DNA of 20,000 nt, taken from the IMG/VR virus record IMGVR_UViG_2799112477_000001. The stretch is one strand, 5' to 3'. Below, piece by piece: positions 1,943-20,000 of this stretch (positions within the stretch are counted from its first letter, which is position 1; each line of letters starts with the position of its first letter). The notes under the pieces are model-generated. The model had not been told where the DNA came from. It saw only the letters and a program-made list of their open reading frames with translations, and made no database searches. A program made the translations under genes and the position numbers. This DNA comes from an uncultured virus (IMG/VR IMGVR_UViG_2799112477_000001). Lineage: Duplodnaviria > Heunggongvirae > Uroviricota > Caudoviricetes.

Positions 1943-2051
1943 GCAATTCAGTTTCACCTGTTTTGACACGTCGTTAACCGAAAAAGGAAGCGCAACCAAG
2001 TTTCTCTCTTAATGCTGCAACTATGTGCTTGGAAATGATTGCAGCCTGAGG

Positions 2052-2124
2052 CAGGGAGTAGAGGAGTCAAACCTCTGTCTGCGGCCATGGTTCTCGCCGC
2101 TCTTCACCGCTAAGCTAACTCCCT
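2052..2124 (-). pseudogene. degenerate tRNA-like element
   Basis: Acceptor AGGGAGT/ACTCCCT, D-arm TAGCTTAGCGGTGAAGAGC, T-arm AGAGG-TTTGACT-CCTCT. The anticodon stem is broken and the 3' end is CCT rather than CCA. Confidence 0.55.
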
Positions 2125-2505: not shown

Positions 2506-2545
2506 CGCTATGCACCTCCTTGTCGTAATTATAAAAGAGGGTATT

Positions 2546-3367: not shown

Positions 3368-3403
3368 CTATTTCTGTTCTGTTCGTCCATTTTGCCGCGC
3401 AGA

Positions 3404-3566
3404 ATCTACATATTATATATAGTAGAGATTTTTGTTTTGAGTCGGTAAATACTTCAGCACCGGCAGACCTTCCCGGAAGTAGAGATTTTGCGACAAGCAA
3501 CAAGCACAAGTACCTATCTACACCATGCGCATATATATGATATCCCTGCGCAGGCAAGTAGAGATT
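3404..3566 (-). CRISPR. atypical Cas12a mini-array 1: three handle units (3516-3566, 3447-3487 degenerate, 3404-3430)
   Basis: Minus-strand AATCTCTACT...GTAGAT handles (canonical Cas12a is AATTTCTACT...GTAGAT) with loops of 36 nt and 12 nt. The middle copy ends GTATTT but still pairs TACTTC/GAAGTA. The array begins 35 nt after the cas12a stop. First spacer region is AGGTACTTGTGCTTGTTGCTTGTCGCAA. Confidence 0.75.
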
Positions 3567-3600
3567 TTTAGCGGAAGCATGCTCTGCCGCGCTGTCAATG

Positions 3601-6600
3601 TTACTGTTCCTGTATATGCTGCAGCCAGTCGCTGCTTGATATAGACAGAGATACAGGTTTTGTCGTTTTGTCCCCTGCCCGTGCTGTCAGAGCTTCTTCT
3701 GACGCGCTCTTGATTCTATTGACTATCATCAGCCCCTTGCGGGCAATGTTGTATGCGCTATTATCGTCCTTTGGCGCTTCGAAGAAGCTTCCCGTGGCCA
3801 GATCCATGATTGGTGAAACGATATTTGATCCTGTGCGCATCTGTACGATGAGGCCAAAGAGCGCAAGAAGTTCTTCGTGGAAACTCTTATCGGTCATGCT
3901 GCACAGAGCTTCTCTGAGGTCCTCTGAGCTTTCATCGATACCGTGGTCGTTCAGAAGGCCTGTGATCGACTCCGTCAGATTGATAGGCTTATAGTTTATG
4001 CCTTTATCTCCTCTGACCGCACGGATCCGCTCTCCATGTGAGAAAACGCTCCATTTCATCCTGCAGCCATCGAGCTGCTTCAGCCTGTTCTCGCTTATAA
4101 AGTAGCTGTAGTCGAAGTCGAATCTGTACGCCCTGACCTCTTCGTCGTAAACGATCCTGTCAAAGGCGTGCCAGAAGGCTTTGGCTGCGGGGATGTTTGT
4201 GTATCTGGTATCAAACAGGTTCACAAATCCTGTATTCGAATCTATTTCTGTGATCTTCCACGGCGAAACGTAGAAGATAAAACCTGTCTGTTTTCCGATC
4301 TTGTCGAAGCTTTCGAACGGAGCTGTCAGCTGATAAGCTCTGTAGATCCCGCCCGGTTCATCCGGTTCAGCGGATTTGTTTACAAGCAGATTCAGCTTGC
4401 TTATAAGGCGTGCTTCAAGCTGCTGATATACAGCTTTTTCTATCTTCTGGCGCTGCTGTTTGAACCCGAGGCTCATATCCTCGATCGCTATTACTGCGTC
4501 GTATTTGAGCATAAGGTCGGCAAGGATGCGCACGACCTGCCCGATGTAGCCGTCTTTAAGCTGCTTTATGCCCTCTACTGATTCCCAGCTCTTTCTTTCA
4601 GCCATACGCTGGAGTTCTCTGCTTTCAAGGAGCTTCGCATAGTCGGTCTTCTTAGGCTTACTGCCGGAAGCCTGCTCTATGACGTTGAGAGATCTGTTCT
4701 CTAAAACATTTCCCTTTGGGTCAAGGACGCAGAGCTGGATGAGATTGTTTTCTCCCCTGCTCACACCGATGACATGTACGTTGTCTTCCTTCTTTATAGC
4801 GAGTCTCGCTTCGGTGTTGATAAAGCTGAAATTCGTTGCGGAAGCATTTATGGTGATCGGCACGTTGAGCTGAAATTTGTTTACCGTGAATCTGCGGTCC
4901 TTTACGATGTCATACTTAAGGACCTTGCTCCTCTTCGGATTCAGAGGGTTCTTTGCTGCTACTACATCGCCTGCCCTGTGGATCACGGCATCTTCCGGTT
5001 TTATGGATGCCTGTCTGAAGAAAAGTTCTGCTCCTCCGTTGAGTCTGCAGATCGGGGGCTCCCCGTTTCTAGGATCAAACAGTGCTCTCCAGTAAATAGT
5101 TGACAGGTCCGGTTTGCCGTATGCCTTGTTGCTGAAATCCCTGTGCCAGATTTCGAAGAGATAGAGCTGCCCGTTCTCTACAAGCTCGTTTACGACAGCT
5201 GTATCTATCGGTCTGTACTTTAGCGAATATCCTGCTGTTTCTACTTCACGGAAGAAGCATGAGATATCCTCGTAAGCAGCAGTTTCCGAGAATTTAAAGG
5301 AGAACATCTGCCATGCGTCCGTGACTGCGATACAGTCCTTGTAGAAGTCGATGAGCCTGTGGCAGTCTTCAAGGCTGAAGTCTTTTCCCTTCTTGAAGGT
5401 GCCACTCTTGTAAATGCGCATGATGTCTTCTGAAGGTTTGTAGTTTTCGATCCCCTTTCTGGAGAAGATAACGTGCGGAAGAGCTTTGTTGGCTCCGGTC
5501 AGCAGGTTGTACCTCATCTTCATATAGACATCGTCCGTTACTGCTTCAGGGACCTTTTTGAACAGGTTGCCCTGCCCTTTTGCAATGATCCCAAGATAGT
5601 ATTTGCCGTCTTTCAGAAGCAGCGTTCCGAGCTTTGCGCTTTCAACGCTTTCCGCCCAGCCGTCGAGGAGGAGGGAAGAACCGAAGTTGAGTTTGACCTT
5701 TTCAGTCGTATATATCTTGCCTGAAAGGTAGTTTCTGGTTTTGTTGTAGATGGAAGTAACAGCATTCAGCGCGTCCATCAGCGGCTCATAATCTGTGTAG
5801 AATGCGAGATCTTTGTCTCCCGTCCTGACGGAAAGGTTCTCTGTAGAGCGTCTGATGTTCAGGGCCGCGTCAAGGTATTCCTTTATAACGGCTTTTGCCT
5901 TGCTGCTGCTTTTGAGGCTTCTTGGCTCTGAGCCTCTCATCTGAAGGAATGCGAGGAGGTCTCTTCTTGCCAGATCGAAAGACATCTTGCAGAAGCCTGC
6001 CTCGCCCGTTATGTATGTCGACAGCTTCCCGTCTATTCCCGGAATGATATCCAGTTCTCCGATGCTGTAATACTCTTTCTTTCTCAGCGCTGTGTCTTTC
6101 TGCTTACGGTATGCTGCGGAACGGCGCCTCTTTTCGGTCACATCCTGTTCGAAATCGTATTTATCCCCGAGAAGATCTTTCATCTTACTCCAGGATCCGA
6201 GCATCTTATTCGATATGTCATTCAGAGCTTTTGTCCTGATGTATATTCCGTTAAGATCGTAGCCTCCTATGGAGCTTATGAGGGCCGTCATGCCTTCCGC
6301 TGCAGGCCTGAAGAGCTCATCCAGCGCGAGGAGCGCGTCTATTACCTCATCGTCTTCTCTGAACGCTTCAGGGATGAACGAGAGTGTCGTTCTGTCGCTC
6401 AGGATCTGCTTTTTCAGAGGTGTCAGCTTGGGAAGACGGTCTTCTTTGCTTTCAGCTGCCTGATTTGCCAGGTTGATGTATTCGTTCAGGCCTTTTATCT
6501 TAGTCCCGTCTTCTTTTGCAAAGCCGCCGATAAGCTGGTTGTATCTGTCTATGCCGCTCTGGGCCATTACCTTGCTGAAGCCTTCAACGGAGAAGGAGTC

Positions 6601-7254
6601 AGACATGCTGTCATCGCCAAGCAGTGCAGCTAGTTCTTTTTCAGCTGTCTTTATATTGTCCGGGAGAACTTCTGAGATCCTCGTGAATTTCCTGTGGTTA
6701 TCGAGGAAGATAGGCAGGTTGTCGTCTATGATCCTGCCGGCGACCGAACCACTCTTTCCGGAAGCGTCATATATGAGCCTCCTGTTATTGTGGTATCCGG
6801 TGAAGTAAGATGCGAATCCTTCAAAGCTGCTTATAGCTGCCATTGCTTCTGCGTCATTCTCATACATAGCAGGAAGAAGCTTGTCGAAGAGATCCGCCTT
6901 AAAGAGGTCGTTATAGCCTTTTGCGCCTGTGAGATCATTTGATATATTCTCAGTCATGCGCCTTGCGAGGTCATTCATTTCCTCTCTGGCCTCATCGCCC
7001 TTTTCCGGGTGGAAGTAGAGATCTGCATATGCGGTAAGATCGCTCCCGAGGGAAAAGCCATTAAGAGTATTTTCTATGTGGGTTTTGTGGAGCCCGTCTA
7101 TGAGCTTCTGGACTTTCTTCTTTTCCTCTGCCCGTCTTGTGTCCTCTTCTATGATCCCCCGCTCTTCGATGTATTCGAGGGTCTTCCCCTGCGGGATCAG
7201 GCCGAATCTAAGCGTTTTGCTGATCTTGTAAAGATTTGTGAAATTCTCGTACAT
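3601..7254 (-). CDS. cas12a: type V-A CRISPR effector Cas12a (Cpf1), predicted DNase-dead (RuvC-I Asp to Ser)
   Basis: N-terminal FTNLYKISKTLRFGLIPQGKTLE, KGLNEYINL, LKKQILSD, YNKTRNYL, GQLYLFEIWHRDFS, LNGGAELFFR, KDRRFT, KQTGFIFYV and AYNIARKG. RuvC-I reads GVSRGENNL (S832); E925 and D1163 are retained. Confidence 0.95.
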   Translation of the reverse strand: MYENFTNLYKISKTLRFGLIPQGKTLEYIEERGIIEEDTRRAEEKKKVQKLIDGLHKTHIENTLNGFSLGSDLTAYADLYFHPEKGDEAREEMNDLARRMTENISNDLTGAKGYNDLFKADLFDKLLPAMYENDAEAMAAISSFEGFASYFTGYHNNRRLIYDASGKSGSVAGRIIDDNLPIFLDNHRKFTRISEVLPDNIKTAEKELAALLGDDSMSDSFSVEGFSKVMAQSGIDRYNQLIGGFAKEDGTKIKGLNEYINLANQAAESKEDRLPKLTPLKKQILSDRTTLSFIPEAFREDDEVIDALLALDELFRPAAEGMTALISSIGGYDLNGIYIRTKALNDISNKMLGSWSKMKDLLGDKYDFEQDVTEKRRRSAAYRKQKDTALRKKEYYSIGELDIIPGIDGKLSTYITGEAGFCKMSFDLARRDLLAFLQMRGSEPRSLKSSSKAKAVIKEYLDAALNIRRSTENLSVRTGDKDLAFYTDYEPLMDALNAVTSIYNKTRNYLSGKIYTTEKVKLNFGSSLLLDGWAESVESAKLGTLLLKDGKYYLGIIAKGQGNLFKKVPEAVTDDVYMKMRYNLLTGANKALPHVIFSRKGIENYKPSEDIMRIYKSGTFKKGKDFSLEDCHRLIDFYKDCIAVTDAWQMFSFKFSETAAYEDISCFFREVETAGYSLKYRPIDTAVVNELVENGQLYLFEIWHRDFSNKAYGKPDLSTIYWRALFDPRNGEPPICRLNGGAELFFRQASIKPEDAVIHRAGDVVAAKNPLNPKRSKVLKYDIVKDRRFTVNKFQLNVPITINASATNFSFINTEARLAIKKEDNVHVIGVSRGENNLIQLCVLDPKGNVLENRSLNVIEQASGSKPKKTDYAKLLESRELQRMAERKSWESVEGIKQLKDGYIGQVVRILADLMLKYDAVIAIEDMSLGFKQQRQKIEKAVYQQLEARLISKLNLLVNKSAEPDEPGGIYRAYQLTAPFESFDKIGKQTGFIFYVSPWKITEIDSNTGFVNLFDTRYTNIPAAKAFWHAFDRIVYDEEVRAYRFDFDYSYFISENRLKQLDGCRMKWSVFSHGERIRAVRGDKGINYKPINLTESITGLLNDHGIDESSEDLREALCSMTDKSFHEELLALFGLIVQMRTGSNIVSPIMDLATGSFFEAPKDDNSAYNIARKGLMIVNRIKSASEEALTARAGDKTTKPVSLSISSSDWLQHIQEQ

Positions 7255-7279
7255 GGTGTGGCTGGTTCCTTTCGCTTAT

Positions 7280-7320
7280 AAAAAAGTGCGGTCCGTCTGT
7301 TCCGGGGCTCCGCACTTTTG
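7280..7320 (-). terminator. terminator-like hairpin in the cas12a 5' leader
   Basis: AAAAGTGCGG...CCGCACTTTTTT on the minus strand, about 25 nt upstream of the cas12a ATG. Confidence 0.55.
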
Positions 7321-7447
7321 TCTGTTTTTATTATTAAACGAAAGGAGCCGGGGGAAATGCCTAAAAATCGGTGACTGCATTTCCTCCGGCTTAACACCAT
7401 GAACACCATATCACAAAGAAAGGAATATGGTTCATGTTTCAATGAGT

Positions 7448-7476
7448 ATTATAGCAGTAGATAACGCAGATTGCCA
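7448..7476 (-). promoter_or_regulatory. extended -10 promoter upstream of the cas12a leader
   Basis: TGGCAA-N17-TATAAT with a TGn extension (TGCTATAAT). Confidence 0.65.
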
Positions 7477-7517
7477 CTTCTTTTTTGTGACGGTGCTGTT
7501 GCACTTAAGGTGATTGT

Positions 7518-7973
7518 TTAATGGCTCGGATGATAGTAGCCGAGCTCGATTGCAATGAAGTAGATCGCCCTCTTTCTGTATTTACTGAGCGTTCGCGGCG
7601 TAATCTCCAGATTTTCGCGCGAATATCCATAGACAAGGTTGTTTGTAAGGACATCTTTCAGTTTTTTGCCGGTGCGATTGTCTCTGCATGTCCTTGCTGC
7701 CTTGTATATGCCTTCGTGAATCGCTTTGATCTGCGCCTCTGCTGCTCTCTGTTCCCGCTGTTTATCTACGTGAGCTATAGCGATATTCTCTGTCTTTCTG
7801 GAGATGCTGTTTGTAGGTGAGACCGCTATTCCTCCGTACTGAGGGACCAGACCGTCCATATAGTCGTCGAGAGACCACGGAAGCTGCTCCGCTTTCTTCT
7901 CAAGCGAGGCATAGTTCTTCAGCAGATCCATAACCTTTTGCACTATATCTTTCGGCAGATGATAAGTCGTCAT
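7518..7973 (-). CDS. putative phage transcriptional regulator, ArpU/RinA-like (C-terminal sigma-region-4-like HTH)
   Basis: 151 aa. N-terminal LKNY, 'ISRKTENIAI', a coiled segment and C-terminal 'ITPRTLSKYRKRAIYFIAIELG' resemble the ArpU/RinA architecture. Confidence 0.55.
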   Translation of the reverse strand: MTTYHLPKDIVQKVMDLLKNYASLEKKAEQLPWSLDDYMDGLVPQYGGIAVSPTNSISRKTENIAIAHVDKQREQRAAEAQIKAIHEGIYKAARTCRDNRTGKKLKDVLTNNLVYGYSRENLEITPRTLSKYRKRAIYFIAIELGYYHPSH

Positions 7974-8263
7974 CAGAGGTCCTCTTCCTCGACTATTTCG
8001 AACTCTTCAGCGTTATCGATCTTGACACGCCTGATGAAATCTTCAGGGTAAGGTGTCCCGGTCAGAATGTAGGCGACCTGCGCGATCTGACTCAGGCGGA
8101 GCTTGCTGGGATCACGCAGAAATATCCCCACATAATGTGGGTTTACGTGCATCGCTTCAGCAAGGGCCTTCTTTGTAACCCCTGCGTCGAACATCGCGTC
8201 TTTGACCTTCTCAACATCCAGTTCAAGATCGTATTCCTGATTGGCAAGGCTGTTAATTCCCAT
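7973..8263 (-). CDS. Xre/Cro-type helix-turn-helix protein
   Basis: 'GVTKKALAEAMHVNPHYVGIFLRDPSKLRLSQIAQVAYIL' HTH pattern. Probable start MGINS at 8263 (ORF track extends to 8344). The stop overlaps the next start. Confidence 0.7.
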   Translation of the reverse strand: MGINSLANQEYDLELDVEKVKDAMFDAGVTKKALAEAMHVNPHYVGIFLRDPSKLRLSQIAQVAYILTGTPYPEDFIRRVKIDNAEEFEIVEEEDL

Positions 8264-8504
8264 GTTCGCCCTCTTTTCTGCTTTAGCTTGAAAATATATT
8301 TCACTCTTTAGTCGATTGTAGCATATAGAATGCACCGAATGCAACAGTATGTGACACGGAAGTGATATCAGCTTGACCTAATATTGCAACCGCCGAGGCG
8401 GGGAATGTTAAATTCATAGGTGTTGATTATAATTAAGATTATGAGGAAGGCGTAGATGAGTTGGAATGACTTCTGTTGGTGACAGACAGGCGGTATCGGT
8501 TAAC

Positions 8505-8540
8505 ATAAAGCAAGAGAGCCATTTCTGGCTCTCCTTTGCT
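8505..8540 (-). terminator. intrinsic terminator ending the hsd/RHH transcript
   Basis: Hairpin GAGAGCCA-GAAA-TGGCTCTC followed by TTGCTTTAT. Confidence 0.55.
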
Positions 8541-8615
8541 ATTCTTATTCATTTGATGCCGGGATCACTTCCGCTGTAAAAGTCGCTCAGATGGCGAAAT
8601 TTCAGCGTTTTATTG

Positions 8616-8813
8616 CTATAGGCAATGATTGTACAGGTACTCATCAAGGGCTTCTCTAAAGATCTCTGTTGTCCCTATTCCGCCTTTATGTTTCTCTATA
8701 TAATCGATCAACTCTTTATCAGTGTCATAACGTAGTCTGACGGTATATTTTGCGTAGTTGTTATTCTCCCAACGTTGCTTCACTTCTGTACTTGTTTGTA
8801 TTTTTCTCGCCAT
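8616..8813 (-). CDS. small ribbon-helix-helix-like DNA-binding protein
   Basis: 'YAKYTVRLRYDTDKELIDYIEK...TEIFREALDEYL' RHH pattern. RBS GAGAGGA precedes the ATG at 8813. Confidence 0.6.
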   Translation of the reverse strand: MARKIQTSTEVKQRWENNNYAKYTVRLRYDTDKELIDYIEKHKGGIGTTEIFREALDEYLYNHCL

Positions 8814-8824
8814 ATCTATTCCTC

Positions 8825-9403
8825 TCATTCAAATGTAACAGATATCTCATCAGGCTGCTCTTCCGCTGAGTCAGCATTCACTACAGAGAACTCCACATCC
8901 TGTTCAGCTGTAGCAGACTCGGCCACCTCTACGGCCTGCGCGTTGTCTACTTCATCCGAAAGGTATTTCTGCTCATATTTCTTGCAAAGTGCTATTACTA
9001 TTGCTCCGCCTACCATAAGGGATATCCCCATAGACACATCTGAGAACAGACAGAGGAACCCGAGGATGACCGCGATGACAGCTGCGCTGCCGATCTTTGA
9101 TACCGTTTCTGCGGGAGTGTCCTTCCTTTTGGTATACGTTCTGTTGGCATAAGCAGCAGATGAGGCAGCTTTCCGTCTTCTCTTCTTGGATGATCCGGAT
9201 CCGGCTTTGAACAGATCTTCTACGCTTACAGTCGTCTTGCGGTAGACCTTATTGTACATAGCACGTTTCGGGTCCTTGATCATGCCCATGCCCTTCTTCC
9301 CGTAAAACGGGTTCGTGGCTCTTTTGATCTGTCGCTTGACCTTACCTGTTGTTCTCGCTTTTACTCTTCTTTTGACGCTTGGTGTGCGTATTCCGACTTT
9401 CAT
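8825..9403 (-). CDS. phage-type membrane protein with a basic N-terminus
   Basis: N-terminal 'MKVGIRTPSVKRRVKARTTGKVKR...NPFYGKKGMG...YNKVYRKTT' is a recurrent prophage motif; two TM helices and an acidic tail. Confidence 0.7.
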   Translation of the reverse strand: MKVGIRTPSVKRRVKARTTGKVKRQIKRATNPFYGKKGMGMIKDPKRAMYNKVYRKTTVSVEDLFKAGSGSSKKRRRKAASSAAYANRTYTKRKDTPAETVSKIGSAAVIAVILGFLCLFSDVSMGISLMVGGAIVIALCKKYEQKYLSDEVDNAQAVEVAESATAEQDVEFSVVNADSAEEQPDEISVTFE

Positions 9404-9430
9404 TATGATTCTCCTGATTGCTATAACTTA

Positions 9431-9613
9431 CTACTGCTGTGAGGCAAGCTTCTCCATCTGCTTATTGTAATCATCGATGAATTTGTCTACTGCTCGCTCT
9501 ATCGCTACTGTTTTAGACTGGCCCGACTGTTCACAGTACTTTTCGAGTCTTTCAGCAACGCCAGCATCCATGCGGATGGTAACCGCTTTGTATTTCTTTT
9601 TTTCCTTTGTCAT
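9431..9613 (-). CDS. CopG/RHH-family DNA-binding protein
   Basis: 'AVTIRMDAGVAERLEKYCEQSGQSKTVAIERAVDKFI' is a classic RHH. RBS GGAGGT. Confidence 0.8.
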   Translation of the reverse strand: MTKEKKKYKAVTIRMDAGVAERLEKYCEQSGQSKTVAIERAVDKFIDDYNKQMEKLASQQ

Positions 9614-9618
9614 AGCGG

Positions 9619-12600
9619 CTACCTCCCCCCTGCTGCTATCCTTGCCGCTTCTTTGAATACCGCATCTGCCAGAACTGACATTATCGCATTGTACTTGGAC
9701 TCATCCTCAAACAGCGATTCATAAGTTTCCTGTGCTTCTACATAGCTGTTCTGAGCAGCCTCTCCGAATGCCTTCGGAAATATGCTCTGTCCAAAGATCT
9801 GCCTGTCTGAAGTGCTTGCAATCTTCATCAGCTTATCGTCAGCAGTGAATATAGGATACAGATTCGAAATGAGCACTTTATCGCCCTCTGTAAGCTGTCC
9901 GGCAAACTTCTCGTTGATTTTCTCGATTACTTCATCAAGGGGCTTCAGCGGGTCAAGGCCCATCGCGCTCTTGCTCTGAGGCGGCTCATATACACCCTTG
10001 CCATCCTCCAAAGATATTGAACCTTCGAAGGTCTTGTTGAGTTTGTAGTATTCAAGCTTGAGCTTGTTCTCGATATCTACCATCTTGACAGTCTCGACTG
10101 GGAGAAGCTTCAGAAGGTACGAGCAGAATACATATTCCTTATGAAGGTCCGCATCAAACATCCTGACTACCTGAGAAATGTATCCGTACCACCTTATAAG
10201 GCTCCTCAGCTGTCTTCTGAACTGATACCTGTCATCCGGATCCAGGGTATTATATCTGTCTGCCACTGGCTTAAGGATACTCGTCATCTTGCCCATAGAC
10301 CTGTCATCCTGTTTGCCAGGCTTGTAGTATTCATCAGCGAACTTCTCTATATCCGTATCATCATAAACCTTGAAATTTCGGAGTTCTCTCTGAGTCTGAT
10401 AGATCAGGTCAGCATTGACTTCCTGCTCAAGATATGTTTCCTGATAAAACGGGTTGAACGCTTCAGTGATATCATCTGCCGTATTGATGAAATCAATTAT
10501 AAGCGTATCATTCTTACCTGGACAGGTTCTGTTAAGCCTTGACAGAGTCTGTACAGCCTTTACGCCCTTGAGCTTCTTGTCCACGATCATCGTATGGAGG
10601 TAAGGCTCATCGAAGCCGGTCTGGAACTTTTCTGCTACGATAAGCATTCCGAAGTTATCATGGAACTCTTCCTTTGTCTGAGATTCGGAGATGGCAGAAC
10701 CGTCTCTGCGTTTGTTCAGCTTCGACTCTGTGTATTCATCACCGTTCTCCGGGACAGACCCTGAGAATGCAACAAGAACATCTACATCATCATAGCCATT
10801 CTTCTCGATATAATCCTTCACTGCGAAGTAATACTTTACAGCTGCAGGCCTCGAAGATGTAACGACCATCATCTTGCCCTTGCCGCCTATCTTGTGCCTT
10901 GTGACTTCTCTGAACGTTTCTACGATGATCGGTGTCTTCTGGCTGATATTATACGGATGCAGCTCCTCAAATTTTCTGATGACCTTTGCTGCCTTACTCG
11001 AAGGCACATCCGGGTTGTCTCTTGTAGTATTGGCTATCTTGAAGCAGGTATCGTAAGTCATGTAGTTCTGAAGGACATCAAGAATGAAGCCTTCTTCAAT
11101 TGCCTGCTTCATGCTGTAAATGTGGAATGGATGATATGATCCGTCAGGATACTCAGTTCCGAACATCTCAAGAGTCTTGTCCTTCGGTGTAGCCGTGAAG
11201 GCGAAGAATGACAGATTCTTATGCTTTCCGTGTGAGATGAGTTCCTGAATCAGTTTATTATCTGGATCGAACTTCTCTTCCTCGATTGCCTCATATTCCG
11301 CATATTCTCTCAGCGCTTCCTCTGTATCAGCAAGTGCCGTCTTGAGTTTCATAGCTGCGGAACCGGTCTGTGAAGAATGTGCTTCGTCTACAATGACAGC
11401 ATAATTTTTGCCATCGGCTTTATCTACTTCCTGATAGATGACTGGAAACTTCTGAAGCGTTGTAACGATGATCCTCTTTCCATCATTAATAGCGTTTTTG
11501 AGATCCTGTGAGGACTTACCCTCACCGATGGTCTCTACAGAGCCTATGGTGTGGTCAAAGCATGAAATAGTATTCTGCAGCTGTGCATCGAGGACAGTTC
11601 TGTCAGTTACTACAATTACACTCTTGAATATTGCATTATCGTCGATGTCGTGAAGTGACGCTAATCTGTAAGCGGTCCATGCTATGGAGTTCGACTTGCC
11701 CGAGCCTGCACTGTGCTGGATAAGGTAGTTATGCCCTGCTCCGTTAGCAGAAACGTCTGCGATGAGCTTTCTCACGCAGTCAAGCTGATGGAACCTCGGA
11801 AAAATGAGGTTCTGCTTCTTCACGACCTTCTCGTTGCCGTGTTTATCTACGGTTTTGTCTGTCTTCACTTCAAGGTGTATGAACTTTTTGATGACGTCCA
11901 TCATACTGTCTTTAGTAAAGACGTTCTCCCAAAGATACGCTGTAGGATATCCGTTTGGATTCGGAGGGTTGCCCGCTCCGCCGTCGTTACCGGCTCCGTT
12001 TGAGCCCTGATTGAACGGCAGGAAGTATGTGTCACCCTTAGCAAGTTTAGTTGTCATCCAAACTTCGGTCTGATCGACTGCAAAGTATCCGAGTATCCTC
12101 TTATTGAACTGGAAACATATCTCGGAAGGATCTCTGTCATACATCCACTGTCTTTTGCTGTTCTCTACATCCTGTCCTGTGTACTGGTTCTTCAGTTCGA
12201 ATGCGAATACCGGAATGCCATTTACAGCAAGCATCATGTCCACAGAGTTATTATTGACTGCTGAATAACGCCACTGTCTCACCACGTTTATGACATTGGC
12301 ATCATACAGCTTCTGTGCGGTCCTGTTTAAGCGCGATTCAGGCTTGAAATAGCAGACATGGAAAGTTATACCTCTGTGCTTGAAACCATGTCTCAGAACG
12401 GAAATAAGGCCATCTCTGTCGCTTGCATTATTGAAGGCGATACAGAACTTCTTTTCCGGATCGATCTTGTTCTGCATGACAAATCTTGCCCACTCCTTTG
12501 GCTGCGTAGCCTTGATGAAGTCGGTCAGTGTCTGCTTATACACTCCTAGCTTTGGATCATAGACGTCAGAAGTATTTGTATAACCGCCGTAATGCAGAAG

Positions 12601-12654
12601 TGATGACTCTATATCCTGCTCAAAGCGCTTCTCATTAGTCTGGTCTATTGCCAT
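9619..12654 (-). CDS. hsdR: type I restriction endonuclease subunit R
   Basis: D...NGIP...ELKN nuclease motif, Walker [34 protein letters not shown]. Confidence 0.95.
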
Positions 12655-14756
12655 CAGTTACCCTCTTTCTTTTTGTTATCTCTTGCACTGTATACGAAAT
12701 CACTACGATCAAGGCCATATCTATCAACCAGTGCGCGTATAATACACATAATAGTTGCCGCAGAGAACCCTGAACTTTCATAGATTTCGGAATCAGCCAC
12801 CTTCAAATTGCTGCCCCATGTCAGCTTGTAGTCATACGAAAACATCACTACACTGGACCATTCAAGAATATTCTCGTTACTTCTTGCCATGCTCTCTATC
12901 AGGCTAGGATCAAGCTCATAAAGCTTGTCTATGAAGATCCTGAGCATCTCTGCGAAGTTTGATGCCTTGATGCGTTCTCCCATAAATACGAAGTAGTTTG
13001 GTGCTTTATAAGTCGCATCCTCAGGATTTTCGCAGGTGTACTCTTTATATCTAGGATCAGCGAATGATACTACTTTCTCAGGCTTATCATATCTGAACAT
13101 GTCAAGAATCATCTTTGACAGTCTTTCTGCTCTTGCCTCGATCGTATCCTTGTTCCATGCTGTAAGACCTTTGACGTCTTTGTTCAGGATCACTACTTTA
13201 GTTCCCTTTTCATCAAGCATGTCAAGTTTCTGAAGGAACGGTCTGTCGCCCAGTTCACTGTTATGCCCGGTAAGAGTAAGGTTGCCCAGTGTATGCAGAT
13301 ATGTGTTTCTTACATTTTCATAGTCGGTCCCGAGCATATTCTGCCAGTTTGTAGACAGATTCTTATTCTGAGGCATAATGTGCTCGATAGTCAGATTATC
13401 TGTAAGTATTTGTTCCTTACTCTGATTTTCTATAGATGTGAGCAGGAATCTGCAAAGAGCATATTTGTGATAAAGGTCGTTCTTCTTCAGTGCTTCAAGG
13501 AATGTTAGATCTCGAGGCATCTCATCTCTGGAAGTCAACTGGGTCAGGAATGAAACTATCGAATCATAGTAATGTTCCTTGTTCTCCGGTACATTGAATA
13601 CTCTTGTATAGAGTGTCTTGTACAGTCCTCTTAATGAGTTCGAAGCGATTTCACACATGGTGCGGCGTACACTATATGAAACAAGAAGTCTTAAGGTCTT
13701 AACAAGCTCCTTCTCGCTTATGACCTCATTCAGGAAATCATCAAATACTCTATAAAGGAACAGGAATGCGGTTGTCTGATTCAGTGCCTGCAAGTTTCCG
13801 AGAAGGCTGTTGACCTCATCGCTGTATTTGCTGCTTCCATGCATAAATGAATGATACAGTTCTGCATAATGCAGAAGCTCCTGCAGCATGGTTTCGTTAT
13901 CGTATCCGCCGTCTTCATAGAGTCCCTTGAACTGGTCGTAGGCGTATTTCTCCTTCGCAAACTCATCGAGTTTCAGATTCAGATACGAGTAGAAGAATTC
14001 GTTTCGATAGTCTTTCTTGACAAGCTGCTCGATCTTGATCCAGTATTCTTCGAACAGTCTGTCCTGATCGACGTCAGTCATGAGAACGAAGTTCCGGATC
14101 TTGTCTGCAAGGCTGAGAGGAACACCTGTGGAATTGATTCTCTCAAATATTTCCTGAGCATTATCATCGGGACCGAGCTGAATTCTTGCGCAAGTAAGTC
14201 TGCCGATACCATTGAAAATATCCTTTATCCTGAGATCAGGGTCCTTCTCCATCGCTCTTTTTATGAGAGTGCAGAATAGCTCGTAGTTGTGCCAGATTCC
14301 GGATGATCTGTCAACCTCATCGAATTTATTGTCCATGATGAGCATAAGCTGCCTGTTATCTGACTTGACAGGCTTAAGTTTGAGCTTAGTTGCTTCTGTA
14401 ACATCGAAGGAGTCGTATTTGTCCTTATTGATAATAGTGTCTAGGATGGCTTCCTTATCGTATTTCTTATCTGCAAGATCAAGGAGCGCCTTCAGGAGCA
14501 GATAAATGGTCGTAAGTCTCTGCTGTCCGTCAATGATTACATATGACTGGATATTAAGACCGTTGTTCAATGGTGCGAAGACAACAGATCCACAGAAGTG
14601 CTGCTTATCCCTTTTGTAAGCATTGACGATATCCTCAAACAGTTTCTTGCAGTCGTCCTCTGACCACTCATAGTTACGCTGATATACAGGGATAGCGTAC
14701 TGCCTCTTATTAGGTTCGATGAAGTCGTTAATTATTCTTCCAGGAGCAATATCCAT
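12654..14756 (-). CDS. DUF262 + DUF1524 (HNH) protein, GmrSD/RloF-like modification-dependent nuclease
   Basis: [20 protein letters not shown] and IFERINSTG (DUF262); TIEHIMPQ...LGNLTL...N (HNH, DUF1524); extra C-terminal domain. Confidence 0.9.
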
Positions 14757-16021
14757 TAATTCGGTACCTCCTTCTTGCCTGTAAGATATTCGTATATGAG
14801 GGATTTTTTATATGACTCGAGTTCAGCAATAAGCTGCTCTTTCTTTTCTATGACCCTATCAATTTCAGAGCACTTATCATCCAAATAGCGAGATATTTCT
14901 GTTTGTTCCTCTTTATTCGGTATAAGCACAGGCATACTCTTAAGTAGCGGTTGCCCTAAACTTGCCCGAGTCACGATATTCATTTGTTTTGCAAGGAAAA
15001 TTCTATGGTGACTGCTTCGGAAATAATACTTTGAATATCCAATATCCAAAGTATTATTTATTGGCCGTAGTCTAATCAGAAATCCGGCAAACGTCGCATG
15101 AGGTATGGTTTCCTCACAAACACTAGAAAAACCTACTTCCTCTATAGTTTCAGATGTTCGTGTAAAGAAAATATCGCCTTTTTTGACTGAATACAGTGCT
15201 TGCTCTGCCTCACTCGACTGAATCAAACCACTTAATGCTTTCGGCAATGCAATATTTTTATAGACATCTCCATAACTTACAAAAGGAAAACCCTCTCCGA
15301 AATATTCCCCACCTTTACTAATTCCATTCTGCAATACTCCTATATGGCGCAATTTACAAACGTTCCATGATTCGGGAATATCACCTATCCACTCAATCCC
15401 GCTATCCTTCATCTCACGATTCGGGCGGATTCCTTTTGTAACCGCCTGAGTTATAACAGACTGCTTGAGTTTCTTGTATTCTTCGATGGATGCGCGGGTC
15501 TTTTCAATAACTGCATCTATACTGGAGCATTCTGTATTAAGGAACGATACGATGCGGGCCTGCTCTTTCTCAGATGGCCAAGCGATAACAAGTTTGTTCC
15601 ATAGCGATGCGGACCAAGTAGCAAGACTCACTGAATCAACAACAACTGAAGAAATACTCTGCTGTAAGCTATAACGCACAAACGCTCTGTTAATACTTGG
15701 TTTTATACATGCTCGAATAATATGGTCAGTATAACAAGCTGACTTCGAAGGTAGATATACATATGGTGTTCCGTTTCTTGACAAGAGCAAATCATTTTCG
15801 TTTGTATATTTCCAGTCAGGAAAGTCTTTATACTTCGTTCTTATTGGTTCAATACCGGCAGTGTAAAAAACAATATCGCTCTCATCGGAGGACCACAGTT
15901 CTTTGTCTATCCCCTCACCAGTATTCATTCCATTGTGTAAATACTTAAATCGGATTGTTCCCCAGTCATTTGGTATTTGTCCGATCCAGTCGACTCCACT
16001 CTTTTTCATTTCCCTCGCCAT
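14756..16021 (-). CDS. hsdS: type I R-M specificity subunit S
   Basis: Two TRDs with repeated conserved regions (EMKKSGVDWIGQIP / EMKDSGIEWIGDIP; EQARI / EQTEI; KQSVITQAVTKG / KKSLIYEYLTGK). Confidence 0.95.
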   Translation of the reverse strand: MAREMKKSGVDWIGQIPNDWGTIRFKYLHNGMNTGEGIDKELWSSDESDIVFYTAGIEPIRTKYKDFPDWKYTNENDLLLSRNGTPYVYLPSKSACYTDHIIRACIKPSINRAFVRYSLQQSISSVVVDSVSLATWSASLWNKLVIAWPSEKEQARIVSFLNTECSSIDAVIEKTRASIEEYKKLKQSVITQAVTKGIRPNREMKDSGIEWIGDIPESWNVCKLRHIGVLQNGISKGGEYFGEGFPFVSYGDVYKNIALPKALSGLIQSSEAEQALYSVKKGDIFFTRTSETIEEVGFSSVCEETIPHATFAGFLIRLRPINNTLDIGYSKYYFRSSHHRIFLAKQMNIVTRASLGQPLLKSMPVLIPNKEEQTEISRYLDDKCSEIDRVIEKKEQLIAELESYKKSLIYEYLTGKKEVPN

Positions 16022-16023
16022 TC

Positions 16024-17781
16024 TTACGCCTCCTTATGGAACAGAGACTGCAGGCTTTCAGAGATTTCTGACTCAAGGTCTGTAATTCTATCCATAATAT
16101 CCTCTACCGCTTCAGGGGCCTGGTACTCGTAGAAAAATCTCGTCATTGGGATTTCATAGCCGACCTTTGTTTTTGCCTTATCTACCCATGCATCTTGTGC
16201 ATATGGAAGGACTTCTCTTTTGAAATACTCGTCTATGTCTTCCTTCAGCGGCACATTTTCGGTATCTCTGAGACTTGAATCAGCGACTGGCTTACCTTTC
16301 TTAAGGACAATGACGCCATTTTCATCTCGCTGCGGTCTCTCTACAACGATTTTTCTGTAACCAAAGTCTTCGCCATCGAAGATCTTGCTTTCGCAGTAAA
16401 TTCCATCTTTATCACCATAGATCTTTCCATCCTGGAATTCGCCTACGGCTGTTACGATCAGATTCCTGCAATAATCAGTGATGTCGTTGCGTTTGTTTCC
16501 GATTGATTTGCGTCTCGGTTCACAGCAATGGGATGCATCAATAAGCTGAACCTTACCGGCTTTATATTCAGGTTTCGCCTTATCAATGACCCACACATAC
16601 GTACTGATACCTGTATTCATAAAAGCATCTGTGCTGAGCTGAATGATGCAATCAAGATAGTCGTTCTCTATAAGGAACTGCCTGATGTTAGACGGCCCGC
16701 TTCCGGCATCTCCGGAAAATAGAGGCGAACCATTCTGGATTATAGCCATCCTGCCGTCATCGGTAAGCTTGTTAACACCATTGAGTACGAAAAGCTGTTG
16801 CCCGTCTGATATCTTAGGCAGCCCCGGAGCAAATCTTCCCTTCTCTCCAAGCTTGTGCTCCGCTTCTACAGCCTTTTGTTCACGCTTCCAGTCAATGCCG
16901 AATGGAGGATTACTTATGATGTACTGGAAGTGGAATCCCTTAAATTTATCATCGGATAAGGTATCTCCGAATCTCATGTTCTCAGGATCCCCGCCACGTA
17001 TCAGAGTATCTGCTTTCGCAATAGCGTATGTAGACGGATTTATCTCCTGCCCGAAGGTTGTTACTACAGCATCCTTGTTAAGGGCCAGAATTCGCTCTGT
17101 CATGCACGAAAGCATCTGAGAGGTACCCATTGTCATATCATAGACTGTAACGTTCTCCTCACCAATATCCTTGTCTACAAGCAGCACATCTGTCATGAGG
17201 TATATTATGTCTCTGCTTGTGAAATGCGCTCCGGCCTGCTCATCGTAGCTTTCAGAGAATCTTCTGACCAGCTCCTCAAATATGTATCCGCAGTCAACAG
17301 CACTGACCTTGTCTGGTCCGAGATAGCCCTTAGCTGAATTGAATTCCTGTATTACAAGGTACAGAGTGTTGCTTTCCACCATCCTCTTGATGATATTGTC
17401 GAACTCAAACTTGGACAGGATGTCCTGCACGTTCGGTGAAAATCCTGCAACATAATCTCTGAAGTTCATCTCGATATTCTCAGGATCAGCAAGCAAAGAA
17501 TCAAATGTATACTTGCTTGTATTATAAAAGCTGTAGCCGGATGCTCTTGTGAGAAATCCGTCTATTACAGCCAGCTTCTGGACTTTCTTATACTGTTCCT
17601 GCACTTTTTCATGTGTCGGCAGCAAACAATCATGGAATCTCTTGATCACCGTCATCGGAAGAATAACCAGGCCGTACTCGTGAGGTTTGAACGGACCTGC
17701 AAGATGAGTGGCAACATTCCATATGACAGCTGCTTTTTCAGATATGTTTACTCCTACATTGGATACTTTATTCTCGCTCAT
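16024..17781 (-). CDS. hsdM: type I R-M N6-adenine methyltransferase subunit M
   Basis: AGAHFTSRD, motif I VYDMTMGTSQM, GQEIN, motif IV NPPF. Confidence 0.95.
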   Translation of the reverse strand: MSENKVSNVGVNISEKAAVIWNVATHLAGPFKPHEYGLVILPMTVIKRFHDCLLPTHEKVQEQYKKVQKLAVIDGFLTRASGYSFYNTSKYTFDSLLADPENIEMNFRDYVAGFSPNVQDILSKFEFDNIIKRMVESNTLYLVIQEFNSAKGYLGPDKVSAVDCGYIFEELVRRFSESYDEQAGAHFTSRDIIYLMTDVLLVDKDIGEENVTVYDMTMGTSQMLSCMTERILALNKDAVVTTFGQEINPSTYAIAKADTLIRGGDPENMRFGDTLSDDKFKGFHFQYIISNPPFGIDWKREQKAVEAEHKLGEKGRFAPGLPKISDGQQLFVLNGVNKLTDDGRMAIIQNGSPLFSGDAGSGPSNIRQFLIENDYLDCIIQLSTDAFMNTGISTYVWVIDKAKPEYKAGKVQLIDASHCCEPRRKSIGNKRNDITDYCRNLIVTAVGEFQDGKIYGDKDGIYCESKIFDGEDFGYRKIVVERPQRDENGVIVLKKGKPVADSSLRDTENVPLKEDIDEYFKREVLPYAQDAWVDKAKTKVGYEIPMTRFFYEYQAPEAVEDIMDRITDLESEISESLQSLFHKEA

Positions 17782-17810
17782 ATAAGTGCTCCTTTTACAT
17801 TGATACGGTA

Positions 17811-17839
17811 ATTATACCACACTTTGCCGTTTTACGCAT
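17811..17839 (-). promoter_or_regulatory. extended -10 promoter of the hsd operon
   Basis: ATGCGT-N17-TATAAT with TGG extension, 30 nt upstream of the hsdM ATG. Confidence 0.6.
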
Positions 17840-18100
17840 TAAAATGCAATACAAATATTGCATGCGCATACATGATATTATCCTACAGATTTAACACTAT
17901 CATTGTCTTATGACTCGCGATAAAAAAGTACAACGCAGTACATCGCGATTTCCGACATTTTTTGCATGAGATCCGACAAAAGAAACACGTTCGCCTAAAG
18001 GCGCCAGATAGTGCTTCTTGACGTTGGAATTTCAACGGTTTAGAGTGATCATACCGGCCGGGTAAATGTAAAACACACTTGACATAGAAAGGAGCCAGCA

Positions 18101-18442
18101 ATGGTAATGACAAGAATCAATGACAAGTATGATCTGTCGGCCTGCCAGGAAGAACCGGATGTGCTTGTGTTCGAACTGACACGTGCTATCCGCATGATAT
18201 CTCAGGACCTGGATCAGACTTATCCCGGCGATGCGAAGATCGTGATCTACAACGCCATATCTGACATGTACGACGCTCTCGGCAAGCAGTTCGAGAACCC
18301 TATGCAGGGCAAGTTCGACCAGTACCTCCAGTACTCACAGGAACGCATCAGCGACCGAGGCTGCTACGGGATCATATTCCCTGATGAGGAAGGAGGAAGC
18401 GGATGTCCGGATACAAATACAGACCCGAATTCGAGATCATAG
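18101..18442 (+). CDS. hypothetical protein
   Basis: 113-aa ORF with RBS AGAAAGGAG; overlaps the next gene. Confidence 0.7.
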   Translation: MVMTRINDKYDLSACQEEPDVLVFELTRAIRMISQDLDQTYPGDAKIVIYNAISDMYDALGKQFENPMQGKFDQYLQYSQERISDRGCYGIIFPDEEGGSGCPDTNTDPNSRS

Positions 18443-18639
18443 AATCTCTTGGGGTATTGGACATCAGAAAAAATGGCTGGAGAACAGAAGTAAATCTCAT
18501 ATCCTGGGACAAAGGCCCTCCTGTCATCGACATCCGTGACTGGCTTTTCGATCACAGCAGGAAGTCTAAGGGTGTCAACTTCACTGAAGCGCAGGCTGCT
18601 GCGTTAGCCGTGATCCTCAGCAGGAAATACAGCTCTTAG
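18403..18639 (+). CDS. PC4/YdbC-family ssDNA-binding protein (copy 1)
   Basis: 'FEIIESLGVL...GWRTEVNLISW....IDIRDW..DH....KGVNFT' YdbC signature. RBS GGAGG. Confidence 0.85.
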   Translation: MSGYKYRPEFEIIESLGVLDIRKNGWRTEVNLISWDKGPPVIDIRDWLFDHSRKSKGVNFTEAQAAALAVILSRKYSS

Positions 18640-18665
18640 CTTAGAGCCATGAATGGAGAAACGAT

Positions 18666-18887
18666 ATGGCAGACAATATCTCTTTTGAAATAAAGAAGCA
18701 TCTTGGGACCATATACACCAGCAGAAACGGCTGGCGAAAAGAGGTCAACATAGTCGCCTGGAACGGGAGCAAAGGAAAGATAGATATACGGACATGGTCA
18801 CCGGATCATGAGCACATGACAAAGGGCGTGACCCTTACAGAGAAAGAAGCAGCTAAGGTAGCAGAGATACTGAGCTCAGTGCTCTGA
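18666..18887 (+). CDS. PC4/YdbC-family ssDNA-binding protein (copy 2)
   Basis: 'FEIKKHLGTI...GWRKEVNIVAWNG...IDIRTWSPDH..MTKGVTLT' YdbC signature. RBS GGAG. Confidence 0.9.
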   Translation: MADNISFEIKKHLGTIYTSRNGWRKEVNIVAWNGSKGKIDIRTWSPDHEHMTKGVTLTEKEAAKVAEILSSVL

Positions 18888-18897
18888 GCCGGGCATC

Positions 18898-18942
18898 AAA
18901 AAAACAGCAGGGCGGACGATATGTCTTCCCTGCTGCTGTTTT
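18898..18942. terminator. bidirectional intrinsic terminator between the ydbC pair and mini-array 2
   Basis: Stem CAGCAGGG/CCCTGCTG with a T7 tail on the minus strand and a TTTT tail on the plus strand. Confidence 0.75.
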
Positions 18943-18997
18943 CCTGCACAAGATCTGAACCCCGATAACATCGTGTCAGACTTTTCATAGATGACGA

Positions 18998-19099
18998 ATC
19001 TACATTTTTCATATCTAGTAGAGATTTTGTTTCAGCGTTTCAGCAAGATTCTCAATGTCGGTAGCCGGGGATCATTTTATCTACGCTGTAGTAGAGATT
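18998..19099 (-). CRISPR. orphan Cas12a mini-array 2: two handle units (19079-19099, 18998-19026)
   Basis: TAATCTCTACTACAGCGTAGAT (near canonical, 6-nt loop) and AATCTCTACTAGATATGAAAAATGTAGAT (14-nt loop). The following sequences are AAAATGATCCCCGGCTACCGACATTG and TCGTCATCTATGAAAAGTCTGACACG. Confidence 0.75.
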
Positions 19100-19132
19100 A
19101 TCGTAGCGCACCACACTTCCATACTTGTCATT

Positions 19133-19161
19133 ATCTTAGCATGAGATAACCACATTGACAA
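19133..19161 (-). promoter_or_regulatory. promoter of mini-array 2
   Basis: TTGTCA-N17-TAAGAT with TGn extension, about 35 nt upstream of the first handle. Confidence 0.6.
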
Positions 19162-19191
19162 ACACTGCACCGCTACCTTCGTCAGCCCCTA

Positions 19192-19275
19192 TTTTGTACC
19201 AATTTAAACGTATCTCCGTTTTGTACCAAAATTGATTGAAGCAGCATCTTTCTTATGGTAGAATTTTTGTACCAA
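19192..19275 (+). repeat. putative res site: three TTTTGTACCAA repeats
   Basis: TTTTGTACCAA at 19192-19202, 19219-19229 and 19265-19275, plus an AAACG-N6-CGTTT inverted repeat, directly upstream of the resolvase. Confidence 0.6.
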
Positions 19276-19316
19276 TTATGACGGTCACTTGATTTGATAT
19301 TGAGAAGAGGTAAATA

Positions 19317-20000
19317 ATGGCAAAAAGGATATATGGCTATTGCAGAATCAGTACGCCAAAGCAATCTATAGACAGACAGATTCGAAATATACTCAAGGAT
19401 TACCCTGATGCGATCATCTATCAGGAGGAATTCACCGGAACCAAACTTGACAGGCCTAAATGGAACGCCCTGATGAGACAGATTCGACCTAATGACACTA
19501 TAGTGTTCGATTCTGTATCGAGAATGTCCAGGGATTCAGAAGAAGGGTTTAAGGTCTACGAGAAGCTGTTTTCTGATGGGGTAAATCTAGTGTACCTTAA
19601 GGAGCCACATATAAACACAGAAACATACAGAAAGGCTCTTGAGACGGGAGTGCCCCTTACAGGCACTGATGTGGACTATATACTTGAAGGTGTGAACAAG
19701 TATCTCATGTGTCTCGCTAAAGAGCAGATAAAGATAGCTTTCAATCAGTCAGAGAAGGAAGTCACGGATCTTCGCCAGAGAACCCGTGAAGGCATAGAGA
19801 CCGCCCGCAGAAACGGAAAGCAAATCGGTGCGGTCAAAGGCCGGAAGTTAACGACTAAGAAGTCTGTAGTGGCAAAAGAGATAATAAAGACCCACTGCAA
19901 GTCCTTCGGTGGCACCCTTTCTGACGCTGAGACAATGAAGCTTGCTGGGGTGACGAGGAACACTTACTACAAGTACAAGCGGGAACTGATGGGGAAGTAG
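19317..20000 (+). CDS. small serine recombinase (resolvase/invertase family)
   Basis: IYGYCRISTPKQSIDRQ (catalytic Ser), TGTKLDRP, DSVSRMSR, RTREGI...GKQIG and a C-terminal HTH. Confidence 0.93.
   Translation: MAKRIYGYCRISTPKQSIDRQIRNILKDYPDAIIYQEEFTGTKLDRPKWNALMRQIRPNDTIVFDSVSRMSRDSEEGFKVYEKLFSDGVNLVYLKEPHINTETYRKALETGVPLTGTDVDYILEGVNKYLMCLAKEQIKIAFNQSEKEVTDLRQRTREGIETARRNGKQIGAVKGRKLTTKKSVVAKEIIKTHCKSFGGTLSDAETMKLAGVTRNTYYKYKRELMGK

Follow-up and report, generated by a model that had tools for sequence, protein, structure and literature searches.

The window analysed here is a 20,000-nt stretch of DNA from the IMG/VR record IMGVR_UViG_2799112477_000001, and it contains a single gene for Cas12a, an effector of CRISPR systems, on contig C42 of a 2.52-Mb genome. 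Far from this gene, at positions 18898-19161, lies a small unit that carries two copies of the hairpin ("handle") by which Cas12a recognises its guides, and this two-handle unit is the subject of the present work. Read on the minus strand, it is composed of the following elements, all of them located where a preliminary description of this DNA had placed them:

19133..19161, minus strand: TTGTCA-17 nt-TAAGAT, a promoter-like site whose -10 hexamer is preceded by TG (sequence reading and promoter scan)
19079..19099, minus strand: handle 1 (psiR1), AATCTCTACT-acagc-GTAGAT, with a 5-bp stem and a 5-nt loop (sequence, motif scan, and folding)
19027..19078, minus strand: guide or spacer 1, 52 nt, beginning with AAAATGATCCCCGGCTACCG (sequence reading)
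18998..19026, minus strand: handle 2 (psiR2), AATCTCTACT-agatatgaaaaat-GTAGAT, with an expanded, A/U-rich loop of 13 nt (sequence, motif scan, alignment, and folding)
18943..18997, minus strand: guide 2 or 3′ tail, beginning with TCGTCATCTATGAAAAGTCT (sequence reading)
18898..18942, minus strand: intrinsic terminator, a long G+C-rich hairpin followed by T7 (sequence, folding, and inverted repeat I9)

The repeated part of the unit is limited to the 3′ handle (10 nt, the loop, and 6 nt). Both copies, which start 73 nt apart, keep all 16 defining bases and fold as a Cas12a handle, with a 5-bp stem UCUAC/GUAGA and then U; handle 1 folds at -4.3 kcal/mol (z = -4.0). The 5′ flanks of the two handles differ (gcgctacgat and ctgaaacaa), and identical full-length repeats of ~36 nt are absent. 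The tail after handle 2 has 100 nt and includes the terminator, whose hairpin (18942-18905) and T7 tract (18904-18898) reach -24 kcal/mol (z = -4.4), a value equalled by one in 200 shuffled sequences. This terminator was unseen by a simple terminator scan because the scan admits only loops of 3-8. The run of A opposite to the tract means that the same structure can double as terminator of the convergent PC4-like gene, whose end is at 18887. Upstream, the promoter-like site matches 9 of 12 positions in the promoter scan, and both of its hexamers are unchanged across four metagenome runs. No Rfam family matched the unit interval. A 38-codon open reading frame (ORF) at 18896-19012 was rejected as a gene, as it passes through handle 2 and the terminator hairpin. 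On the plus strand, two paralogous genes for small PC4-like DNA-binding proteins (18403-18639 and 18666-18887) are convergent to the unit and have the terminator in common with it.

That two short hairpins resemble Cas12a handles merely by chance is very improbable. The bare 9-mer AATCTCTAC would allow it, being present at the expected frequency in the genome (19 found, 19.3 expected), so that the signal lies in the composite motif and in its clustering. The pattern TCTAC-N(3-30)-GTAGAT occurs three times in the window against 0.30 expected, a count reached by one of 200 shuffles, and the three matches are both unit handles and one handle adjoining cas12a. Genome-wide, the composite 16-base motif AATCTCTACT-N(2-45)-GTAGAT has eight perfect copies against 0.05 expected, all of them on C42, the contig of cas12a, and two of them are those 73 nt apart in the unit. 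The similarity between the unit and the array next to cas12a also extends past the handle into the flanks. Motif counts and clustering effectively refute the chance explanation. The eight copies fall in four loci:

3404..3566, minus strand: array 1, handle-only units directly downstream of cas12a (sequence, alignment, and folding)
18898-19161, minus strand: the unit under study
C42:91975-92014 (L001 7975-8015): lone handle bearing a hairpin insert of 24 nt, located upstream of a topoisomerase gene
C42:94475-95894 (L001 10440-11900): orphan array of canonical type, its full repeats 36 nt long and its spacers 29-31 nt

The last two loci are the further copies outside the window that the preliminary description had anticipated. 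In the solitary handle, which sits in the leader of the topoisomerase gene, a G+C hairpin replaces the loop (-12.8 kcal/mol), and the 5′ flank is similar to the canonical repeat. The orphan array, just past the topoisomerase gene, has the repeat cctttggaactatgtAATCTCTACTatgtGTAGAT, which ends in the AATCTCTAC handle, and is split inside a repeat by an IS630-type insertion (ORFs with DDE_3 and helix-turn-helix matches). The handle variant of the unit, AATCTCTACT...GTAGAT, is also found directly after cas12a in array 1, as had been claimed. Among 100 other Cas12a loci, 68 have a handle repeated at least twice, and all 68 use AATTTCTAC, with U where the variant of the unit has C. The other 32 have no such repeat in a count that allowed loops of 3-6 nt; they include two metagenome contigs, L028 and L029, whose loops are mostly longer. 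These comparisons of sequence support the view that the two unit handles represent a private handle variant of the resident Cas12a.

A handle scan of IMG/VR (at least 108 loci) returned no homologue of the unit, and nearly all hits were single matches in conserved phage genes, at chance level. In the same scan, contig L150 (401-500) has at least three head-to-tail 40-nt units, each with a perfect AATCTCTACT-ttat-GTAGAT and the same 20 nt, and contigs L113 and L188 have single handles behind promoter-like A/T-rich DNA that resemble solitary repeat units. An intergenic half handle, gactcaaaAATCTCTACTATAG without GTAGAT, was seen at G000:C2:2123 (minus strand), and the sequence on its 5′ side is similar to the 5′ flank of the last array 1 unit. 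No more than 10 kb from the orphan array, L001 carries two RRXRR(+HNH) IscB-like genes and a TnpB-like gene (OrfB_IS605 and Cas12f1-like TNB), at 39-1289, 2417-3880, and 6283-7410.

Array 1 comprises R1, which has a hairpin insert of 35 nt; a unit that is degenerate, the third in the alignment, where GAAGGT replaces GTAGAT; and a final unit whose loop is 11 nt long. Both array 1 and the unit repeat the handle only, and the sequences 5′ of their handles are unrelated. Guide units have loops of 4, 5, 11, 13, 24, and 35 nt, of which the two longest fold as extended hairpins. In the alignment, R1-spacer-R2 of the unit (array 2) parallels R3-spacer-R4 of array 1. The last units of both share aaacaaa(a)AATCTCTACTA.ATAT..AA.ATGTAGATTC, a context that begins with aaacaaa(a)AATCTCTACTA, ends with GTAGATTC, and has 87% identity over 37 nt, which bears out the shared last-handle context noted in the preliminary description. 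Judged from this alignment, the paralogy of array 1 and the unit goes further than the handle. In L028 and L029, array 1 has one unit more, which consists of AATCTCTACT-gatt-GTAGAT and 27 nt and is missing from the window.

This relationship gives some ground to an explanation in which the unit is a non-functional relic, namely the tail left by an earlier array of this Cas12a type, which recombination moved here and which persists only through its youth or by hitch-hiking with the cassette. Its two units correspond to the final pair in array 1, of which one is already degenerate there, and the system has been reshuffled: array 1 lost a unit in relation to L028/L029, and the canonical array was split by the insertion. 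The irregular spacing of the unit, the lack of targets in the searches given below, and a polymorphic first loop base in handle 1 would also suit a relic. Against it stand the 16 defining bases kept in both handles, the strong terminator that follows them, the promoter-like site at the right distance, a diversity below that of the flanking non-coding DNA, and the recurrence of the sequence in runs of 10 studies. On balance, a relic seems unlikely.

Directly after array 1 there is an Endonuclease_NS_2 gene with a hydrophobic N-terminus (2546-3367, minus strand), which is kept in L028/L029. The last handle of array 1 (3404-3430) ends 36 nt before the ATG of this gene; it would then lie in an mRNA leader, so that processing by Cas12a would cut the leader and could leave Cas12a at the 5′ end.

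The partner of these handles is encoded as follows:

3601..7254, minus strand: cas12a, 1217 aa (five Pfam domains, structure-sequence alignment, and clade alignment)

The protein has REC1, REC2, PI, RuvC, and Nuc domains (five Pfam families, E from 1e-76 to 2.5e-30) and its alignment to LbCas12a structures covers residues 3-1215, end to end (E = 6e-246). Its RuvC-I motif is IGVSRGE, against IGIDRGE in LbCas12a, i.e., Ser in place of the first Asp, and the complete RuvC triad Asp-Glu-Asp is consequently not present. Ser occupies this position in 15 of 15 cluster representatives of the clade (P0001-P0015, 51-98% identity), and the next 29 hits outside the Ser clade all have Asp (IGIDRGE). In the clade alignment, K768 and K785 never vary and H759 hardly does; we take these three to be the residues of the LbCas12a ribonuclease (RNase) that cuts the precursor of CRISPR RNA (crRNA). 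Engineered D-to-A RuvC mutants of Cas12a bind DNA without cutting. Judged from the alignment, the resident Cas12a should therefore probably bind DNA and not cut it. ReChb (8qwd), the top match in the PDB, was considered as a natural binder and set aside; its RuvC-I aligned as IGIDRGE.

The genome, which is 85.6% complete, has a single cas12a and no match to Cas1/Cas2 families. Neither the Cas12a protein nor the 301-nt unit locus was found in 60 related genomes. A single-protein scan of GTDB genomes gave no relative, and a scan with the clade alignment gave 21 loci, all at 38% identity or less and none of the Ser clade. Among 78 loci returned from JGI metagenome contigs, the Ser clade is represented by L028 and L029 only, with Cas12a proteins 98% identical to the resident one; a protein scan of IMG/VR returned one distant Cas12a only. 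No report of a natural Cas12a with inactive RuvC was found in the literature searched, and the accessible part of a 2025 classification gives V-C, V-M, V-O, V-P, and Cas12b3 as inactivated and does not give V-A (PMC12669027).

In the 263 nt upstream of cas12a (7255-7517, minus strand), a TATAAT box and two long inverted repeats are accompanied by a hairpin of terminator-like form, AAAGTGCGG...CCGCACTTTTTT, immediately preceding the ribosome-binding site, an arrangement reminiscent of an attenuator or small RNA. These 263 nt gave no match in Rfam and contain no handle. Further upstream, small genes at 7518-7973 and 7973-8344 (minus strand) match the phage transcription regulator/activator families phrog_36, phrog_248, and phrog_1373, and they are kept with cas12a in L028/L029.

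The unit lies 11.64 kb from the start codon of cas12a (7254), in a region that differs between strains:

8609..19170: strain-variable cassette with array 2, two PC4-like genes, hsdM-hsdS-gmrSD-hsdR, and small ORFs (blastn against L028/L029)
19275-19265, 19229-19219, and 19202-19192, minus strand: three direct copies of TTGGTACAAAA (sequence reading)
19317..20000, plus strand: serine recombinase of the resolvase/invertase type, conserved beside the variable cassette

In blastn comparisons, the window matches L028/L029 over 2546-8608 (95.7-98.3% identity) and over 19175-20000 (99%), and the 10.5 kb between these blocks are replaced in L028/L029 by 3.8 kb of other DNA, which holds an ORF read by eye, with no family search, as a group II intron-like reverse transcriptase. 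The cassette operon is a type I restriction-modification system with an inserted GmrSD gene. Similarity to L028/L029 ends near 19170 (by eye), 9 nt upstream of the -35 hexamer; thus the promoter-like site begins ~9 nt inside the cassette and the unit occupies its very edge. The TTGGTACAAAA copies (19192..19275) are between the resolvase gene and the breakpoint of the cassette and, from their sequence and position, may be recombinase or regulator sites. No flanking repeats of note bound the cassette, and no replication, transfer, or virion genes were seen in it. Neighbouring genes with phage-family matches encode the PC4-like DNA-binding protein, the invertase, and regulators. The GmrSD-type (type IV restriction) gene is located at 12654-14756 (minus strand), between hsdS and hsdR.

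From these comparisons, the unit is cargo of the strain-variable cassette and not needed by the Cas12a module. This accessory position makes a cassette-borne guide, a decoy, or a hijacker as plausible as a host regulon. In the decoy or hijacker explanation, the unit would be a Racr- or Cracr-like RNA of the cassette that soaks up the resident Cas12a or steers it either clear of the cassette or towards cas12a or a competing element, to the benefit of the cassette. Its location suits this explanation, as the unit is ~9 nt inside a 10.5-kb variable cassette, near a serine recombinase and the three TTGGTACAAAA copies, with sister contigs that lack it and with phage-family matches in neighbouring genes; in the accessible parts of the literature, V-A Racrs and CracrVA1 have the same anatomy, and Cracrs of types I-C, I-E, and I-F occur in two- or three-unit arrays. 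On the other hand, no seed of at least 7 nt from either guide, flanked by a protospacer-adjacent motif (PAM), occurs in the window, so that the defining feature of Cracr and CreR is absent; a cassette without transfer or replication genes is not established as a mobile element; and no known anti-CRISPR gene was recognised alongside, with no dedicated search for one. The benefit of a decoy is also less obvious against an effector that is DNase-dead. We consider a decoy or hijacker rather unlikely.

The 621-nt stretch with the unit occurs in DNA runs of 10 studies, mostly from ruminant gut. Variability was evaluated with contigs of four runs from four studies, and the variable sites were distributed as follows:

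18898-19161, unit: 2 in 264 nt
18451-18897, flank: 15 in 447 nt
19162-19316, flank: 6 in 155 nt
resolvase gene: 0 in 684 nt

The unit is thus less variable than both flanks together (2/264 nt vs 21/602 nt; Fisher p = 0.02). One of its two variable sites, 19148, is in the promoter spacer (all four runs), and the other, 19090, is the polymorphic loop base of handle 1. Neither guide varies among the four runs, which fits fixed guides and not adaptive turnover. The stretch of the PC4-like genes is the most polymorphic part of the metagenome contigs compared.

Targets of the two guides were searched in several collections. When PAM and seed were considered in the genome, the best match was a seed of 11 nt that follows TTTG at C57:17085 and lies within an ORF for a small membrane protein; ~0.06 such matches are expected per guide, ten guides were searched, and the match was judged to be due to chance. 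Neither guide has a TTV-flanked seed of at least 7 nt anywhere in the window, the stretch of 263 nt before cas12a included. For guide 1 only, 400 family genomes gave ~51 matches with three mismatches and none better, against ~22 for a reversed-pattern control. INPHARED phages and PLSDB plasmids (blastn, E up to 10) gave only matches with E of at least 0.8 for either guide, and 1.43 Mb of retrieved loci gave no match to either. Exact 20-mers of both unit guides, three guides of the orphan array, and one guide of array 1 had no match in IMG/VR, where exact-match searches are insensitive. The preliminary description had proposed that dispersed guides serve a dead Cas12a as a small regulon and had called for a search for their targets. 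Dispersal over four loci and the clade-wide change from Asp to Ser agree with this proposal; the regulon idea is unsupported by these searches, shallow as they are, because no guide has a credible PAM-flanked match in its own genome.

We propose that the unit is an independently transcribed, two-unit, crRNA-like mini-array for the resident and probably DNase-dead Cas12a, with a probability of about 0.5. In its favour are the handle shared with array 1, the motif counts, the strong terminator, the paralogy with array 1, and an arrangement of psiR, guide, and rho-independent terminator like that of published V-A crRNA-like RNAs, which Cas12a processes and employs to bind DNA uncut (10.1101/2024.10.29.618823; 10.1101/2023.03.10.532045). 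Its transcription, processing, and loading into Cas12a, as well as the loss of DNase activity and the silencing outcome, are what we infer from these features. In the proposed mechanism, the order psiR1-guide1-psiR2-guide2-terminator would be cognate to the one Cas12a of the genome. Transcription would start near 19126 and stop at the T7 tract, giving an RNA of ~230 nt. The RNase of the WED domain of Cas12a would then cut this precursor just 5′ of each AAUCUCUACU handle; each complex would hold one handle and its downstream guide, the 3′ end of which would be trimmed by other nucleases. Such complexes would bind complementary, PAM-flanked DNA and leave it uncut, blocking transcription or replication; no cutting would be expected because Ser replaces the first RuvC Asp. 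A mode of action of this kind has been reported for Cas12c, Cas12m, and Cas12a loaded with CreR or Cracr. The guides would be hard-wired, since no adaptation genes were found, and the unit would travel with the exchangeable restriction cassette.

Several observations weigh against this mini-array. The preliminary description had given the unit its own promoter and terminator, and only the terminator is supported: the promoter-like site is present, with a match at chance level, since 17700-20000 has six sites of this kind and shuffles predict 4.2. No RNA runs with the locus appear in the run listing. Handle 2 has a loop of 13 nt, and the spacing of 52 nt is irregular; the regular spacing of ~23-31 nt and the adjacency to cas1/cas2/cas4/cas12a of canonical arrays are both lacking. 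The first loop base of handle 1 (19090) is A instead of U in the RNA strand in two of the four runs. The low diversity of the unit is weak evidence because of shared ancestry or haplotypes, clustered variants, and the absence of variation over the 684 nt of the resolvase gene. RuvC-II Glu and RuvC-III Asp are conserved in the Cas12a, and its "dead" state is deduced from one residue. With up to five mismatches allowed in 20 nt, the best match of the guides in the genome has three mismatches and no PAM. In L028/L029, no perfect handles other than those of array 1 were found within 10 kb either side of cas12a; as the unit is absent from this range in these contigs, which have a 98% identical Cas12a, it is dispensable for the system.

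A wider idea, which is possible and rather doubtful, is that this Cas12a lineage gave up cutting, through an Asp-to-Ser change fixed in a clade whose members diverge to ~51% identity, as well as spacer acquisition, and runs on scattered guide genes that consist of the 20-nt handle only, some with long hairpins in the handle loop and some on exchangeable defence cassettes, the unit being one plug-in module. If true, the specificity of the silencer would be swapped by exchange of cassettes, not by adaptation.

Stand-alone crRNA-like genes are already known as CreR, Cracr, and Racr, and a remote mini-array alone would be a modest extension of them; the comparisons that follow refer to the accessible parts of the respective reports. 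CreR of type V-A, from Moraxella bovoculi and others, is located upstream of cas12a, has a 20-nt handle in common with the repeat, and guides Cas12a to its own promoter by partial pairing beside a TTTA PAM (10.1101/2023.03.10.532045). CreR and the unit are alike in being degenerate mini-arrays whose handle is common with the cognate repeat, in having their own promoter (in the unit, only a promoter-like site at chance level), and in a guide for binding and not cutting, which is proposed for the unit. They differ in that the second repeat of CreR is degenerate, whereas the unit has two intact handles; and in that CreR is directly upstream of cas12a, whereas the unit is 11.6 kb off in an exchangeable cassette, with a type I restriction operon and further genes between. 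In addition, the CreR guide pairs with a PAM-flanked site in the cas12a promoter, a complementarity that the unit guides do not show, and the effector of CreR is an active nuclease restrained by partial pairing, while that of the unit is without the RuvC-I Asp. No CreR was identified.

CracrVA1 is a phage copy with handle, guide, and rho-independent terminator, which Cas12a processes to ~40 nt and which leads to binding with no cutting; the same source describes 30 Cracr arrays of two or three units, belonging to types I-C, I-E, and I-F only and none, in the accessible text, to V-A (10.1101/2024.10.29.618823). Cracrs and the unit are both stand-alone outside the cas locus, and each combines a promoter (promoter-like in the unit) and a handle of 19-20 nt with a guide that is followed by a rho-independent terminator. 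The defining feature of Cracrs, at least nine PAM-proximal bases in common with the host CreR or target, was not found for the unit; moreover, they are on viruses or plasmids, whereas the unit is in a restriction cassette of a bacterial contig that is not a recognised virus or plasmid. Since it shows no complementarity to the cas promoter, the unit does not fall under CreR or Cracr.

RacrVA1-3 are solitary repeat mimics that inhibit Cas12a immunity (PMC10651486). Like the unit, they are repeat mimics outside CRISPR loci, behind a promoter (promoter-like in the unit) and in accessory or mobile DNA; unlike it, they are solitary and without a meaningful guide, while the unit has two handles, 52 nt between them, and a long tail. 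By the SRUFinder rule, a partner repeat within 100 bp means that a repeat is not solitary, and the unit would be classed as a mini-array (PMC10651486). Cas12c, Cas12m, and Cas12k are type V effectors with inactive or absent DNase that bind DNA and leave it uncut, and Cas12c and Cas12m silence by a roadblock (PMC12669027; PMC11013384). These are separate subtypes with their own guide architecture, whereas the resident protein is a bona fide Cas12a with a change of a single RuvC-I residue. According to the available part of one preprint, the length of the handle loop matters for some Cas12a orthologues. On sequence grounds, the unit fits best as a two-unit V-A crRNA-like RNA (crlRNA) gene on a defence cassette, with a partner Cas12a that lacks the RuvC-I Asp.

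Three features distinguish this system: its partner comes from a natural Cas12a clade in which the RuvC-I substitution is fixed and for which no adaptation genes were found, and of which no report appeared in the literature searched; its guide units are handle-only, with loops from 4 to 35 nt; and the unit is carried by a restriction cassette that can be swapped. Provided that the RNAs are produced and loaded, this would represent a natural Cas12a-based CRISPR interference with modular, horizontally exchanged guides; it would bear on the domestication of CRISPR effectors for binding-only roles, provide a natural DNase-free Cas12a scaffold, and show which variation of the handle loop is tolerated. 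If the unit is a decoy, the logic of RNA anti-CRISPRs would extend to binding-only effectors.

At the other end of the window, a cluster of tRNA-like sequences occupies 33-484 and 2050-2124 (minus strand). ARAGORN identified in it tRNA-Leu(TAG), tRNA-Gln(CTG), and two members with odd anticodon loops, one of four bases (gcaa) and one of two (ac); Rfam calls three of the cluster tRNA.

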